A stretch of DNA of 32,000 nt from Promethearchaeota archaeon (GTDB lineage Archaea; Asgardarchaeota; Lokiarchaeia; Sigyniarchaeales; Promethearchaeaceae): assembly GCA_016933055.1 (NCBI GenBank), contig JAFGBS010000026.1:14211-46210 (forward strand), written 5' to 3'. A model generated the notes under the pieces. That model was not told the origin of the DNA. It was given only the letters and a program-made list of their open reading frames with translations, and did no database searches. Below, in pieces: positions 712-32,000 of this stretch. Position 1 is the first letter of the stretch; every line of letters begins with the position of its first letter. A program made the position numbers and the translations under genes.

Positions 712-1704
712 CTAGAAAACTATTTCTTTGATTCTAATGCTTCCGGTACCTGTTTGAAATGTAAAAAAGAAGTTCTGTTCTGCTGGAAAAAATTCATTCT
801 GATAGGGTGTAAAAGGTCCGGGAATTTCAAGGTCACTAGAAATGTCACCAGTGGAAGTAATCGCACTGATCTGTATCCCTGATTCCATAGGGAAATCATA
901 TCTCATGGATATTCTTCCCGTATCTGTTTCTATATTAAAAGTGGCATTTCGAGAACAGATAATCTCAGATTGATCAAAATGAAAATCAATAATTCCACTG
1001 CGACTAGTCATGTTCCACATCTCTATTGTCGAGAATAATTCAACATTATCGAAAATTATATCCAATTTCCCCGCAATGGTATGAGTATCTAATGTTGATG
1101 AATCTAATGCAGTGTTATCCCCAAAATTTAAAGTCATATCCCCTGAACTTGAAAATACATTTAATTTGGCAATTATTGTCTGAGTTAAGACAGAATCGAA
1201 TACCAAATAGATATCTCCAGATTCAGTAGTTATATTGTACATAACGATCATGTCTGCGCGAATTGTGATATGTAAGTTATTATAAAAGGAACGATCATCA
1301 TTAGAGTCATATAATTTAGGTGCATTATAGGTAATCTGTAGAAATTCTCCTTCTTCATTTGCAGTAAAATTGGATGCATCCTCAACAATAGCAGCTCTTT
1401 TGCCGAAAAATCGATTTTCTGCTTCAAAAATGTTCTCTAATTCTTCTTTATAACTGATAAATATACTTCCTTCCGCATTCATAATGGTCAGGTTCAGAGT
1501 GGAGACATTTTCTGAATCATAGACGAAATCAATGCGATCCAGTAGAGTGTATCCAATTCTTGCTTCAGATTGAGTTAAAATAATCGCAGTTAAAGTTCCT
1601 GCGGTTATGACGATAGCAGTGATGATTGAAATTAGAATTATTTGTTCTTTTTTGATTTTCGACATTATCCGAGCACTCTTGTTGTAATTAGTGAAATACT
1701 TCAT
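712..1704 (-). CDS. Membrane-anchored beta-strand-repeat protein (DUF4097/adhesin-like)
   Basis: N-terminal TM (IILISIITAIVITAGTLTAIIL) followed by repeated xTxSGxI-type beta units (TTESGDI, FSSSGDM, HTIAGKL, TSRSGII, ETDTGRI, ITSTGDI, QTGTGSI). Alternative start at 1665. Confidence 0.6.
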   Translation of the reverse strand: MKYFTNYNKSARIMSKIKKEQIILISIITAIVITAGTLTAIILTQSEARIGYTLLDRIDFVYDSENVSTLNLTIMNAEGSIFISYKEELENIFEAENRFFGKRAAIVEDASNFTANEEGEFLQITYNAPKLYDSNDDRSFYNNLHITIRADMIVMYNITTESGDIYLVFDSVLTQTIIAKLNVFSSSGDMTLNFGDNTALDSSTLDTHTIAGKLDIIFDNVELFSTIEMWNMTSRSGIIDFHFDQSEIICSRNATFNIETDTGRISMRYDFPMESGIQISAITSTGDISSDLEIPGPFTPYQNEFFPAEQNFFFTFQTGTGSIRIKEIVF

Positions 1705-1751
1705 TGTTTTAATTTTTGTTTTTTTTTTTTATTTCTGATCGATAAAATCTG

Positions 1752-2243
1752 AGCCTAGCATCTTGCGTTCCACGAAACAGGCTAAAAGCTTATTCACCTA
1801 CACTAAAAGATAGGTGAAAAAATTGATTTAACGCAATAGGGATTATGACCCTAAGGTCCATCCGAAGAACTATGTGGCAATAAAAGTCTACTATGTTGAA
1901 ATTATGTACACGTAATGTTTAACATATAAACAACCTAAAATTCTAGAGGGCGGATATAACGGGATAGGTATTGACTAATCAACATCTATTCCGACCTTTC
2001 GGATACGTAGATAATCCCAAACACTTAAAACTATCGTAATACTCCACCGAACGTATAAAGTTGAATCCCTATCCAATTTGTTCTATGTGTTCAACCTATC
2101 CTATTGGATAGGTGGGTTTAAGGTGCACCTATGCTAAAAGAACCTATTCGATTACTCTTCACGAATAGGCTTTTTAGCATAGTTCTGAGAATAAGGTTCT
2201 ATCTATCCGAGCATAGCGATGGATAGGTAGGATAGGATAGCAT
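1752..2243. repeat. Intergenic array of inverted repeats sharing CCTAT/ATAGG stems (possible structured ncRNA or non-autonomous element)
   Basis: Stems read directly: 1793-1818, 1837-1853, 1892-1926, 1984-2012, 2094-2113, 2129-2182 (about 20 bp), 2197-2232. GATAGGT or its complement at 1809, 1963, 2094, 2107, 2222. Confidence 0.6.
1975..2059. repeat. Dispersed bipartite motif, copy A (CTAATCAACATCTATTC-N31-ACTTAAAACTATC)
   Basis: 17/17 and 13/13 identical blocks with the same 31-nt spacing as copy B at 31914-31998; the next 24 nt match at 15 positions without gaps. Confidence 0.75.
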
Positions 2244-2282
2244 GGAAATTGATTAAACAAAAATCAAAATCAGAAAAGAAGA

Positions 2283-2939
2283 TTAAAGATGTCCATTCCT
2301 TGAAAAGAACGATAGATCATGCCATCCAATGAGATATACTGTGATTAAAATAGTTGTTAAGAGGAAAACTATTGGATGAAATAACCAAGTAATTGCGGGG
2401 ATAAGGAAATATAATCCTCGAATACCACTTGTCCAGTAATTTTGCGCAGCAGCGAATGATTTTTGCATTAATTTATAGGTTTCTTCGAAAAGTTCTTCTC
2501 TTTTTTTTGTATTTGCAGTGATTAAGAATTGACTTCTATAAAGCATCCTTATGGAAAATACAAAATTGAAAAGGGAAAAAATTGAAATCATTCCAATCAG
2601 CACAATTTGAACAATTCCCACAGAAATCGTTATGCTTCCGAGAAAATCTGCATCTATATCTCCTAAAATTTCATATTGAAACAATCCAATAATTAAACTT
2701 AAAAACAACAATAACCCAGAAATAAAAATAGAATTAGACATTATTGAGTTACGAATTGCCTGGATGGTAACTAAATGAGATAATTCATCGATCCGAGCAT
2801 CTACCCAATTTTTATAGGTACGTTCTATTGAAGCACGGTTGTAAAGTTTACCTGTTCTTTTGCAAATTACCATCATCATAACATAAATGATGAGACAAAG
2901 AAGAAATGTGAAAAAAGCTGCTTCATCCCAACTAAACAT
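2283..2939 (-). CDS. DUF599 family membrane protein
   Basis: TIQAIRNSIMSNSIFISG resembles the DUF599 VQTLRNxIM motif; several TM helices; C-terminal GIRGLYF..W.FHP. ATG at 2939 preferred over the TTG at 2957. Confidence 0.7.
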   Translation of the reverse strand: MFSWDEAAFFTFLLCLIIYVMMMVICKRTGKLYNRASIERTYKNWVDARIDELSHLVTIQAIRNSIMSNSIFISGLLLFLSLIIGLFQYEILGDIDADFLGSITISVGIVQIVLIGMISIFSLFNFVFSIRMLYRSQFLITANTKKREELFEETYKLMQKSFAAAQNYWTSGIRGLYFLIPAITWLFHPIVFLLTTILITVYLIGWHDLSFFSRNGHL

Positions 2940-3234
2940 AGCTCTCAACAAAAACAAGTAACTCTTGGTTAATAAAGATCACATTGTTTTATTTTTCAAA
3001 AAGTTAACTGGTTTTTACTGCATTGGACGCCAATAATATTAAAATATAAACTACGTGTTCATATTTAAACAGCCTTATGTGTGAGATACGTAGTTGCATA
3101 GTCCAATTATTATAAAAATTGAGTTTCATAGTAGTGAGATTTTTAGAAAGATCAATGATCTTCTTATTTCCTAAAGATTTATATGAACTTGTTAATCAAA
3201 CGATAGGTAGAAAATTTCATCATCAAAGTATCGA

Positions 3235-3733: not shown

Positions 3734-6202
3734 ATGATTGCAAACACCAAAAATTTATATCGGTTTCCTATAAATGCAAGCTTAATGACCAATGACTCTC
3801 CTTTGTATGAGAAAATCGAAGTACCGATTAAGAGTTTATTTCCTCTTGACAGAAACTATGCATTTTTAGCCGGTGCTGGAATTTCGATGGATTCACCCTC
3901 CGATATGCCCTCAGCAAAACAGATGGTGATCCAATTGCTGAAATTGGTAGCACCAGAGGAGGAAGTGCATAATATTCTCCAATTGGATTCTTTACGCTTC
4001 GTAACGGTCGTGGAACTTATCCAAAATATTATTGATATGGATTTGAGGTTTTTAGATTATATGGAGCTAATAACCACTCCTAATCTTATCCATTTCTTCT
4101 TATCCCGATTAATTGTAAAAGGACATTCAATTGTAACTACAAATTTTGACTATTTGCTTGAATATGCCCTCAAACAAATCCTCCCTGCCCCAAAATACAA
4201 AAATATTCGGATTTTTGCCACAAAACAAAATTATATCGATGGGTCATTAAAACCCGAAATACTGCAAAATGCTTACAATCTCGTTAAAATTCATGGTTCA
4301 AAACGAAATGTTATCACTATTACTGCCATACAGGATTCTATTGTCACCACAACCAGTGCTTTGGGTAGTGATCGGTCAGAGGAGGATACTTTTCTAATTA
4401 ACTCTAACAAAAAAGATGTTATATATTCTCTAATGAAAGATCGCACATTAGTAGTCGTAGGATATTCTGGAAATGATGATTTTGGCATTTCGTCCCTAGT
4501 TAATGAGCTTCCGTTTCTCTCCCGTGTCATATGGATTGAACACTCAAACCAAGATAAATTTGAGATTCTCCGTTTCAGAAAACTACCTGTAAATGAAGAT
4601 GAGGAGAACTATGTAGAAAATCAAAATAAGTCTCATCCCCCATTAGATCTCCTATTATCCAATCTACACATGAAACATGGATATGAGACGTTATTAATAC
4701 GAGGTAATACAAAGATCTTAATTCAACATCATTTATGGTCTATTTTTCACCCCGACGTTCCTGCAGAAATTCATCCCCCAAGTTCTGGTCAACTCAACAC
4801 AAGTTTTAATGATTTTGTTTTAAAACAATATAGAACAATAACTGGAACACAAAAATATCTCTTTGGTACGCAATTATTTTTCAAACTCAAACAAATTCCC
4901 GCAGCAGTTCGTTGTGCACGTAGAGGTTTAGCATCTGCATCAATTACTGATGCACTAGCGGCTAAGTCAACGTTTTTGACCCTTCTCGGTTTATCTTATC
5001 AACTTCAAGAAGAGCACAAAAAAGCCTTAGATTTTTATAGTCGCGCTTTGCTTGTGAATAAAGAACTGGGAAACATTCCGGCTCAAGCTTCTCTCTTGAA
5101 TAATATTGGTTCTGTATATAGGGAACTGAGAATATATGAAAAAGCCATTTCACATCATGAATTAGCTTTGAGAATCTGTGAAGAATTAGGAGATGTATCG
5201 GGGAAAATAACAGCTTTAGACAACTTGGGGCGCGTCCACGAGAAACACGGACAATATCAAAAAGCCAAGGATTATTATATCACAGCATTAGATTTCGCAG
5301 ACAAGACTGGTGACCTCGAACGGAAAGTAATACTCCACAATAATATCGGGAAAATAATTAGCTCAGAGGATCCTAATACAGCAATCTTACACTATAAAAA
5401 CGCATTGAAAGTTACGGAACTGTTAGGGGATTTACAAGGACAGAATATTTTATATAACAATATAGGCGCAGTTCTTCAGGAAAAAGGAGATTTGGAGACT
5501 GCTATTTCTATGTTTAAAAAAACCGCCTTATTAGCCGAAAAGCTGGGGAGTATGTCGAAAAAAGCAGAGGCGTTAAGCAATCTTGGTTCAGTGTATCTCA
5601 TTCGAAGTGATCTTGAAAAATCTGTGGAATATTTCAAGGAAGCAAGTATATTAGAAGAAAATCTTGGTAATCCAAAGTTAGCGGGTTTATATTACAACAA
5701 GATTGGAATCATAATGCAAAAAACCGGAAAACTTGAGAAAGCAATTGAATTCTATAAAAAAGCTCTGTTGAAGTTCGAATCCATTGCAGATATGCATAAT
5801 ATCGCAATTATTTTAAGTAAATTAGGGGATTGCACTATTACCAAGAAGCAATACACAGAAGCGATTAGATATTTTCAGTGGGCGAGGAAATTATATGCTT
5901 CCCCCGAATTGGATGATTTGGAAAATTATGCAGCAATTACAAATAACCTCGCAAAATGTTATGAAAATATTGGTAAACATACAGAAGCCTTAAGATATTA
6001 TGAGGAAACTTTGGAAATACATGAAGAACTAGGAGATATTAAGCAAATCGCTGTGGATTTTTTTAATATCGGCAAAATTCAGCAACTCCAAGAGCATCTT
6101 CCAATTGCGGTGGATAATCTACGAAAAGCTCTAGACTTGTTTTCCCAACTGGGGATGGAAGACCAAGTAAAATCAATTCAACATCTACTCAATACATTAT
6201 AA
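3734..6202 (+). CDS. SIR2-like (SIR2_2) domain plus about 11 TPR repeats
   Basis: FLAGAGIS, IVTTNFD, VKIHGS and VVVGYSGND sirtuin motifs; the C-terminal half is made of ~40-aa TPR units (LNNIGxVY...A...Y..AL....ELGD). Start may be ATG 3785. Confidence 0.85.
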   Translation: MIANTKNLYRFPINASLMTNDSPLYEKIEVPIKSLFPLDRNYAFLAGAGISMDSPSDMPSAKQMVIQLLKLVAPEEEVHNILQLDSLRFVTVVELIQNIIDMDLRFLDYMELITTPNLIHFFLSRLIVKGHSIVTTNFDYLLEYALKQILPAPKYKNIRIFATKQNYIDGSLKPEILQNAYNLVKIHGSKRNVITITAIQDSIVTTTSALGSDRSEEDTFLINSNKKDVIYSLMKDRTLVVVGYSGNDDFGISSLVNELPFLSRVIWIEHSNQDKFEILRFRKLPVNEDEENYVENQNKSHPPLDLLLSNLHMKHGYETLLIRGNTKILIQHHLWSIFHPDVPAEIHPPSSGQLNTSFNDFVLKQYRTITGTQKYLFGTQLFFKLKQIPAAVRCARRGLASASITDALAAKSTFLTLLGLSYQLQEEHKKALDFYSRALLVNKELGNIPAQASLLNNIGSVYRELRIYEKAISHHELALRICEELGDVSGKITALDNLGRVHEKHGQYQKAKDYYITALDFADKTGDLERKVILHNNIGKIISSEDPNTAILHYKNALKVTELLGDLQGQNILYNNIGAVLQEKGDLETAISMFKKTALLAEKLGSMSKKAEALSNLGSVYLIRSDLEKSVEYFKEASILEENLGNPKLAGLYYNKIGIIMQKTGKLEKAIEFYKKALLKFESIADMHNIAIILSKLGDCTITKKQYTEAIRYFQWARKLYASPELDDLENYAAITNNLAKCYENIGKHTEALRYYEETLEIHEELGDIKQIAVDFFNIGKIQQLQEHLPIAVDNLRKALDLFSQLGMEDQVKSIQHLLNTL

Positions 6203-11154: not shown

Positions 11155-12891
11155 ATGAGTGAAATCGAATCCGAACAGACAGTTTCTGAAGAACTTCAAT
11201 TCGTATACAGGAAGGAATTATGGTTTGCGAATCTTATTATTAATTCTACTCAAATTGACATGAAGACTATAGTGCACAAACTTAAAGAATTCCTCGTAAC
11301 TAAGTTGAAAAATCTCACTAAACAAGATATTCCCAATTGTGCTTGGAGCAATGATCTCCAAAAGAAAGTATTGGAGATTGCAAAACACTTAACTCTCACT
11401 ATTTCATGGAATCCCGTACTTCTGAACTTCCCCTTTCAAGTAGAAAAATTGACCTATAATCAAGCGGGTTTTCTGGAATTTGATGTGGAATATTTTAAGG
11501 GAAATTTAGAACGGAAAAGGCAATTAAAACCATGGATTTTACATGAAGTCCCGATATTCATCTTGACTCAGCTGAAGGAATATTTTACTCAAATTGATTA
11601 TGTCATAGTCGATAAGGATCCTATGTACATGGTTGCGATTGCAGATCGGACCGAAGAAAGGGGGTTGCGAGTAGAAGTACCTTGGACGAATATTGAAATG
11701 GAAAGACAAAAAAAATGCATTTTCCAATGGATTTCATTATATTCAGGACGATGGGATGATTTTCGAGATTCTTATTTGGAAAATACTGTGGAGGGGAATT
11801 TGGCTTATCGAAAATCGGAACTTCATTATATTCGAGATGAATCTGCATTTTTTTATATCGCCGAGTCAGATTTCAATGAATTTTTCGAATCTTACTATAA
11901 ATCCCGCATAATTAGAACGATTGGGGAAATCAGAGCGTTTCAAAATGCGATAATTGCCGTAAATAAATCTATCGATGAGTTAAAAACCAATATCAATACT
12001 GCCGCTTACTTTAAATTGGAAAACGTGACTTTAACACTTTCAAAATTGGAGTATCTCGTGGGTGTGGTGGACAGCAGAATCAGTGAAATAAAAAATGACT
12101 TAGAATCGAACAGATATCGGTATTATAAAAAGGTGCTATTACATCTAGTTGAAATTATGGATATTGAACAGTTATCCGAACAATTACAGAGCAAAATTAG
12201 CCAAATCTCCGAATCCTTACAAAATCGCTATCGTAAAATACAACAAGTAAGTCAAGAACAACTGGAAAAATCTACTTTCTTCCTAAATATTCTTTTCGGC
12301 CTCGGATTGTTCACTGATATAGTTGCACTAGGAGTAACCTTTGTATTCGCTTTATTCGGTGATCCTGGACTTGAAAATACGATTATATTACTTTTATCGG
12401 GTATTTTTGGATCAATTTGTTTGATACTCATCTTTTATATTACCCATCGCATCATACGATTGCGAAAAAAGGATTCAGGGAAAAATCCGATGCGGACTGT
12501 GGATGCAGTTATTATTGATGATAACAATAGAATTTTATTAATAAAAAGAAGATGGGAACCATTTAAAGGAGCTTATGCTCTTCCCGGAGGATTTATTGAG
12601 CTTGCAGAAGAGCATATCGACGCCTTAGTGCGAGAAACTCGAGAAGAAACGGGTGTGGAATTACAATATGGAGAAATGCAATTCATCAAAGTATTTGATG
12701 ACAAGAATCGCGATCCTCGTGGTCCAGTGCATTCATACGCTTATCTTTGTCGAGTGGATGATATTGAAGAACGGACACGTAATTATCATGATAAAGGTCG
12801 TTTACTAATCATTCATATTAACGATTTAAAAGATTTTAAACTCGCATTTGACCATAGATATATAATCAAAGCGGCATTGAAGCGAGTTTAG
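11155..12891 (+). CDS. CorA-like cytoplasmic domain + 2 TM helices + C-terminal Nudix hydrolase (ADP-ribose-type)
   Basis: Nudix box GFIELAE-x7-RETREETGV plus RDPRG and LAFDH from about 12490; two hydrophobic helices at about 12277-12450, preceded by long amphipathic helices as in CorA funnels. No GMN motif. Confidence 0.7.
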   Translation: MSEIESEQTVSEELQFVYRKELWFANLIINSTQIDMKTIVHKLKEFLVTKLKNLTKQDIPNCAWSNDLQKKVLEIAKHLTLTISWNPVLLNFPFQVEKLTYNQAGFLEFDVEYFKGNLERKRQLKPWILHEVPIFILTQLKEYFTQIDYVIVDKDPMYMVAIADRTEERGLRVEVPWTNIEMERQKKCIFQWISLYSGRWDDFRDSYLENTVEGNLAYRKSELHYIRDESAFFYIAESDFNEFFESYYKSRIIRTIGEIRAFQNAIIAVNKSIDELKTNINTAAYFKLENVTLTLSKLEYLVGVVDSRISEIKNDLESNRYRYYKKVLLHLVEIMDIEQLSEQLQSKISQISESLQNRYRKIQQVSQEQLEKSTFFLNILFGLGLFTDIVALGVTFVFALFGDPGLENTIILLLSGIFGSICLILIFYITHRIIRLRKKDSGKNPMRTVDAVIIDDNNRILLIKRRWEPFKGAYALPGGFIELAEEHIDALVRETREETGVELQYGEMQFIKVFDDKNRDPRGPVHSYAYLCRVDDIEERTRNYHDKGRLLIIHINDLKDFKLAFDHRYIIKAALKRV

Positions 12892-31913: not shown

Positions 31914-31998
31914 CTAATCAACATCTATTCTACCCAATAGATCGTAAAAATCAATTTTTCAACTTAAAACTATCATAAAACAGCGTGAAACGTAAAAA
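31914..31998. repeat. Dispersed bipartite motif, copy B
   Basis: Same blocks and spacing as 1975-2059; internal hairpin ATCTATT/AATAGAT at 31923-31942. May continue past the window edge. Confidence 0.75.
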
Positions 31999-32000
31999 CA

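Follow-up and report, generated by a model that had tools for sequence, protein, structure and literature searches.

The question raised by this locus was what occupies a hairpin-rich gap without coding capacity. The gap (positions 1705-2282, 578 bp) is flanked by the minus-strand ORFs 712-1704 and 2283-2957 and belongs to a stretch of 32,000 nucleotides from an Asgard archaeon, which is called the window here. In the initial annotation it was described as an array of seven inverted repeats sharing a CCTAT/ATAGG stem motif, and a multi-hairpin non-coding RNA (ncRNA) or protein sponge, a REP/BIME-like or MITE-like element and an iteron-type binding platform were considered. All seven inverted repeats were recovered where they had been placed in the gap, and the palindrome AGGTGCACCT and the GGATAGG run were confirmed at their coordinates. 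No ORF of 40 aa or longer is present in the gap, and no tRNA or tmRNA gene in the window. The analysis leads to an element of a biologically ordinary kind; it is not a new RNA gene or a binding platform.

The seven hairpins do not belong together. Folding energies were compared with those of dinucleotide shuffles (n = 200) on both strands. The segment 1976-2255, which includes hairpins 4-7, folds at -82.8 kcal/mol vs. -57.4 +/- 5.0 kcal/mol for shuffled sequences (z -5.1), and none of the 200 shuffles was as good; its minus strand gave z -4.5. The segment 1740-1975 with hairpins 1-3 reached only z -1.6 and -0.6 on the two strands, and 13 and 49 of the 200 shuffles folded as well. Significant relatives of this left part were found nowhere in the genome. 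Because 1976-2255 folds beyond chance while 1740-1975 does not and is without significant genomic relatives, the array is not one unit: it consists of a single structured repeat element and, next to it, DNA that is decayed or folds at chance level, and three of the seven hairpins, at 1793-1926, are outside the element. Folding better than shuffled controls thus holds for 1976-2255 and fails for 1740-1975.

The assembly to which the window belongs (G000, 3.76 Mb) was searched by BLAST and iterated nhmmer. Other genomic copies, which the initial annotation had suggested looking for with genome-wide BLASTN, were found: about 100 copies are dispersed over the genome. The segment 1976-2255 aligns along its full length with several of them, such as C16:253923-254175 and C4:3106-3330. 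It is very probably a short-form copy of a modular, genus-specific family of non-autonomous cut-and-paste DNA transposons (MITEs). The features of the locus are as follows.

712-1704, minus strand: neighbouring gene (330 aa, no match in Pfam) that starts 271 bp from the element.
1770-1830, no strand assigned: possible decayed B-like remnant, then an uncertain right-end-like AAATTGATT motif (weak nhmmer match, 6.9 bits).
1959-1977, plus strand: probable relic of an older long-form right end (15 of 19 positions equal to the long-form right-end consensus, counted on letters).
1976-2255 (G000:C35:16186-16465), plus strand: intact short-form copy of the putative MITE family, 280 bp, with TA at both ends (end-to-end alignment with short forms).
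1976-1991, plus strand: left terminal inverted repeat, starting TAATCAACATCTAT (its 14-mer recurs at both ends of full-length copies).
1976-2060, plus strand: left-end module A, including the stem 1984-2012 (69 genomic copies by iterated nhmmer).
2094-2113, no strand assigned: optional mini-palindrome cassette CCTATCC-N4-GGATAGG, located between A and B (few short-form copies carry one).
About 2114-2196, plus strand: module B, with the long hairpin 2129-2182 inside (50 copies).
2197-2232, no strand assigned: tail hairpin CTATCCGAG ... GATGGATAGG, a module common to the long form (the block is also in long-form copies and in C11:158030-158286).
2240-2255, minus strand: right terminal inverted repeat, ending TTGATTA (aligned with right ends of other short forms).
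2256-2282, minus strand: 27-nt spacer, rich in A (in T on the gene strand), from the DUF599 stop to the element, as read from the sequence.
2283-2957, minus strand: flanking gene of the DUF599 family (Pfam PF04654, E 5e-25).

The left and right ends of the element are complementary at about 13 of 18 positions (counted on letters). The 5' boundary of module A is sharp at TAATCAAC among 54 aligned copies. Two optional CCTATCC/GGATAGG mini-palindromes are carried by 1976-2255, at 2094-2113 and 2197-2232. In the family, the position of the mini-palindrome (~18-35 nt) varies by copy: it is found between A and B, within the B loop, as in C17:704150-704253, or in the tail, and is absent from some copies. 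The mini-palindrome thus behaves like an optional cassette. The closest full-length relative of 1976-2255 shows only 72% identity, which suggests that this copy is old and probably immobile.

The family has several of the properties expected of a MITE: the copies are smaller than ~600 bp and non-coding, have terminal inverted repeats, are numerous, dispersed and intergenic, and occur at filled and empty sites. Module A was found in 69 copies, module B in 50 and the long-form body in 43; B often follows A after 10-40 nt. Full-length copies are 225-428 bp. The same 14-mer stands inverted at their two ends, and TA is both their first and their last dinucleotide. Two size forms were recognized. 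The long form (~290-430 bp) consists of module A and a conserved body. Inner blocks of the long form are strongly conserved, and a 21-mer among them is found in 17 copies (<=2 mismatches). The short form (~225-285 bp) consists of A, B, the tail and the right repeat. A variant left end is known on C6:400690 and C2:282698. The raw genomic count of the terminal 14-mer, 201 with <=2 mismatches, is inflated (a reversed-pattern control gives 91) and was not used as a copy number. At least 27.8 kb, or ~6% of the intergenic DNA, belongs to the family. The genome is 88% coding, and only 4 of the 69 A copies and 1 of the 50 B copies overlap an ORF; ~95% of the copies are intergenic. Their orientation relative to flanking genes is unbiased.

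The shared CCTAT/ATAGG stem motif proved to be a real signature of the family. The density of GGATAGG is 2.09 per kb within the family vs. 0.12 in the remaining intergenic DNA, an ~18-fold difference, and 0.09 in coding DNA; 58 of its 395 genomic copies are concentrated in the 0.74% of the genome that is family DNA. The six matches in the 32-kb window are all within 1962-2236, and those in 1976-2255 track the modules of the element. An iteron-type or origin-like binding array specific to this locus, which six GGATAGG within 275 bp and none elsewhere in the window could suggest, is extremely improbable, since the motif belongs to the whole dispersed family of about 100 copies and follows the element modules here.

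The GGATAGG at 1962 is outside the intact element and is explained by the probable long-form relic at 1959-1977. The nhmmer match of this relic is weak (5.9 bits, positions 266-302 of the long-form body model). The TA at 1976-1977 is common to the relic and the intact element. Farther left, the short direct repeats D4 and D5 connect 1770-1830 to 2126-2141 and 2246-2258. A second gap of this kind is located ~3 kb left of the window start: G000:C35:11237-11971 contains another short-form copy, an isolated right end (11958-11971) and, in reverse orientation, a B-like hairpin, a mosaic like the gap at 1705-2282.

Mobility of the family is shown by filled and empty sites, which were seen for other copies of the family than that of the window. 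At a paralogous pair, C4:3106-3330 is filled and the 83%-identical C13 paralogue is uninterrupted. The alignment gap is 223 nt vs. the 225-nt element, leaving 2 nt at the empty site, which read TT. This empty site comes from an 856-bp duplication with 85% identity (G000:C4:3322-4175 and G000:C13:17423-18276), which is among the very few long repeats in the assembly. At an orthologous pair, the sister species G001 is filled (L010 1385-1621, C89) and G000:C5:78388-78402 is empty; the flanks align at 70-76% on both sides, and the duplication is unreadable inside an A-run. Around another copy, C17:281482-281903, synteny between G000 and G001 is broken upstream. Three abutting pairs of copies, at C27:107597/8, C19:54543/4 and C17:540039/40, each share a single TA, and the relic 1959-1977 with the intact element is a probable fourth shared-TA junction. 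From the one paralogue, with TT instead of TA, and the shared-TA junctions, the TA is probably duplicated on insertion, as a 2-bp target site duplication.

For the copy in the window itself, four public runs were examined over window positions 1300-2900. The left junction of the element is bridged by a DNA contig from a second metagenome study, and no joint skipping the element was found among the contigs of the four runs. No empty allele was seen, the contigs of the second metagenome being filled as well. Among the 30 relatives searched, none has a close orthologue of the DUF599 neighbour, and an empty site was therefore not findable for this copy. Two RNA runs gave only stray pieces of 18-24 nt over the same positions.

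The target site is longer than TA. Of 40 verified ends, 35 have T at positions -4 and -5 of the outward flank and 28 have it at -6 and -7, compared with an intergenic T content of 35%; position -2 is mostly A. The consensus of the insertion site is the palindromic TTTT-N3-TA-N3-AAAA. Both empty sites already have the T or A run, which therefore belongs to the target and not to the element. In the flanks the consensus reads TTGAN-TA, similar to the end of the element itself, TTGAT-TA. This likeness may explain why copies land next to each other, head-to-tail and head-to-head, sharing one TA.

The nearest gene boundary is a stop codon for 16 of the 20 full copies, and in nine of these it is 27-42 nt away. 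Oligo-T tracts are typical behind archaeal genes, where they serve as terminators, and the placement suggests insertion of the family into such tracts. The spacer 2256-2282 is likely to represent the original oligo-T terminator of the DUF599 gene together with the target context. The position of the element 27 nt behind the DUF599 stop, and the clustering of the family behind stop codons, could also be read as a sign that the MITE copy is now used by the host as a terminator, an RNA-stability element or a binding platform for the DUF599 gene or the 330-aa gene. Bacterial MITEs such as Correia elements affect neighbouring transcripts, which offers an analogy, and the hairpin shape is retained despite sequence change. 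However, the placement behind stop codons is explained by the preference for TTTT-N3-TA, whose run pre-existed in the empty sites, and the native T-run sits between the DUF599 stop and the element. Adoption of this copy by the host is thus unlikely, and an ordinary MITE insertion accounts for its position.

The retained shape is best seen in module B. Its structure was assessed by folding each copy. The outer 11-bp stem of the B hairpin is conserved, and for the inner stem the 46 copies show more than 25 different sequences. Of these hairpins, 42 fold better than their own shuffles, with means of -8.2 vs. -3.9 kcal/mol. Such retention of shape under sequence change is not predicted by pure selfish decay. 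It could reflect the needs of transposase binding, template-switch repair of the palindrome, or, in read-through transcripts, a function for the host. Combined with a palindromic target resembling the element end (TTGAN-TA), it is the ground for a broader alternative: an unfamiliar, Asgard-specific transposition system whose enzyme reads hairpins or reiterated CTATYC sites, or cassettes adopted by the host as terminators or for RNA processing. This alternative is regarded as quite unlikely.

The maintenance of the B hairpin with variable inner stems would also suit an ncRNA gene or protein sponge transcribed from the gap, for which the initial annotation had pointed to the TATA-like site at 2024-2030. 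The strong fold of 1976-2255 agrees with such a gene, and so does the conservation of the block around 2024-2040 among the copies. This block is part of left-end module A. The minus strand, however, folds equally well. The G-U pairs in the stems had been taken to suit a single-stranded fold, yet G·T pairs number 73 on one strand vs. 72 on the other in the 46 B hairpins (mean energies -17.8 and -17.4 kcal/mol), so they carry no strand signal. The copies have no orientation bias relative to genes, and the family is confined to one genus plus stray copies. Rfam gave only noise on the gap (best 20.8 bits vs. a gathering score of 60) and no match at E <=1 on a long-form copy. The terminal repeats, the empty sites and the shared-TA junctions characterize a mobile DNA unit. 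An ncRNA or sponge is therefore very unlikely here, and the MITE reading drops one candidate "novel ncRNA" while explaining the hairpin-rich intergenic gaps of this genome.

Numerous intergenic, hairpin-rich copies, with GTAG/CTAC closing the B stem, are also what might be expected of a REP/BIME-like or IS200/IS605-derived (PATE) element that a Y1 enzyme (RAYT or TnpA) mobilizes as single-stranded DNA by recognizing the hairpins. REP/BIME sequences associated with RAYT are intergenic palindromes in mosaics, made of 20-40-nt units without terminal inverted repeats, and are linked to Y1 transposases (PMC2817692). The abundance of intergenic palindromes and their mosaic arrangement are shared with the Asgard family. 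In contrast, the Asgard units measure 225-428 bp, have terminal inverted repeats and are flanked by TA, instead of being short palindromes with a 5' GTAG or having asymmetric ends with subterminal hairpins. The suggested check for a Y1 transposase gave no match to PF01797 in the genome, although control genomes were positive, and TnpB was not found either. The elements thus lack the architecture of REP, no Y1 enzyme was found in the genome, and this origin is highly improbable. A remnant of an IS200/IS605-derived PATE or an omega-RNA is likewise not supported, given the presence of terminal repeats and the lack of matches to PF01797 and PF07282 in the genome.

The preferred reading thus remains a MITE, and the "MITE-like element" among the options of the initial annotation was borne out by the terminal inverted repeats, the TA ends and the empty sites. 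The element is a non-coding unit with imperfect terminal inverted repeats of 14-16 bp, located at a TA. The copy at 1976-2255 would have landed 27 bp behind the DUF599 stop, on the TA that ends an older, decayed copy. Its hairpins are palindromic cassettes within the element, namely the stems of module A, of B (the long one) and of the tail, and the mini-palindrome. The CCTAT/ATAGG core repeats the inner half of the terminal repeat (CTATTC), and the cassettes may be reiterated binding sites of the transposase. The transposase would act in trans and be encoded outside the assembly.

The search for this enzyme has to be read within the limits of the assembly, a 91%-complete MAG in which repeats are often unassembled. 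Within that limit, no match was found in it to the transposase families PF01797 (Y1), PF07282 (TnpB), PF13358 (DDE_3, IS630) and PF13359 (PIF-type DDE). PF01359 (mariner) also gave no match in G000; this blank is uninformative, as the control genomes were blank too. The sole match to PF01609 (DDE_Tnp_1, IS4/IS5-type), at G000:C8:3190-3495 (L033), is a fragment with four in-frame stops, and no terminal repeats of the family are beside it. PF13358 was not found in the congener G001 either, and the IS630 loci of related genera are without the terminal repeats of the family. The ORFs between distant pairs of terminal repeats are housekeeping genes, with no transposase among them. Repeats longer than 400 bp are almost absent from G000, and those in multiple copies are all gene paralogues. 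A cognate autonomous element with the same terminal repeats was thus not found in the 91%-complete MAG. The best guess for the partner enzyme, made from the TA target alone, is a DDE transposase of the IS630/Tc1-mariner type.

One place where the assembly lost repeats is the end of the window itself. The contigs C35 (window 31914-32000) and C18 (G000:C18:2927-3013) end with 87 identical bases, which are copies of the left-end module. No contig continues these ends, and another assembly of the same sample (Logan) stops at the same point. The two ends probably represent young long-form copies, nearly identical to each other, at which the assembly broke.

By its neighbouring proteins, G000 falls among Promethearchaeota, the Loki-type Asgard archaea. 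The family is represented by many copies there and also occurs, with identical terminal repeats, in the congener G001. A short-form search of 29 further relatives revealed no member. With the long-form core pattern and a long-form copy as queries, 119 further genomes of the order yielded nothing except G030, which belongs to another family of the order and contains one long-form copy (L048, G030:C32:20945-23965; nhmmer E about 1e-31). A scan of metagenomes revealed no autonomous element and only one further copy, on the JGI metagenome contig Ga0307433_1000666 (L135), where it is in the same intergenic gap, syntenic with the copy of G030. Either a stray horizontal transfer or an old remnant may account for the copy in this gap. 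In viral contigs, the two core patterns had no matches, and the 33 matches of the terminal-repeat pattern did not fit the family models.

In architecture and behaviour, by analogy, the closest systems are the orphan TA-ended bacterial MITEs such as Correia and the MITEs derived from IS630/Tc1. Correia/NEMIS of Neisseria, as well as RUP and ERIC/IRU, are orphan bacterial MITEs with TA ends, and no cognate transposase is known for them. By description, Correia/NEMIS elements resemble the Asgard family in being small and non-coding, with terminal inverted repeats, TA flanks and dozens to hundreds of intergenic copies next to genes; both are hairpin-forming and have size variants with or without an internal segment. 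The comparison is one of description, and no sequence relation between the two is known. Unlike Correia/NEMIS, the family resides in an Asgard archaeon, is more modular, with swapped left ends or bodies and optional mini-palindromes, and has the longer palindromic target context TTTT-N3-TA-N3-AAAA. MITEs derived from IS630/Tc1-mariner include Stowaway-like elements and Sulfolobus SM1 with ISC1048. A TA target, a probable 2-bp duplication, short terminal inverted repeats and cut-and-paste transposition are shared with them. However, neither G000 nor its congener has a DDE_3 gene, and the terminal repeats of IS630 from related genera differ, which leaves descent from IS630 unproven.

Archaea, Asgard archaea among them, contain IS630 (PMC13343696). 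In a survey with MITE-Tracker, MITEs were found in ~20% of archaeal genomes, and they are mostly intergenic and taxon-specific, as is the family described here; the text of that survey has no mention of Asgard archaea (PMC11602168). In the literature searched, no publication naming MITEs in Asgard archaea was found, and these elements are barely described there. The present family is well delimited; its terminal repeats, target motif and two size forms are described along with empty sites, and it can serve as an annotation resource. It also offers a starting point for identifying the missing transposase in complete genomes, and its insertion polymorphism could be used to track strains.

Elsewhere in the window, the plus-strand ORF at 3734-6202 encodes an 822-aa protein with an N-terminal SIR2_2 domain followed by many TPR repeats. 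This architecture is reminiscent of NAD-depleting defence or STAND-like proteins.
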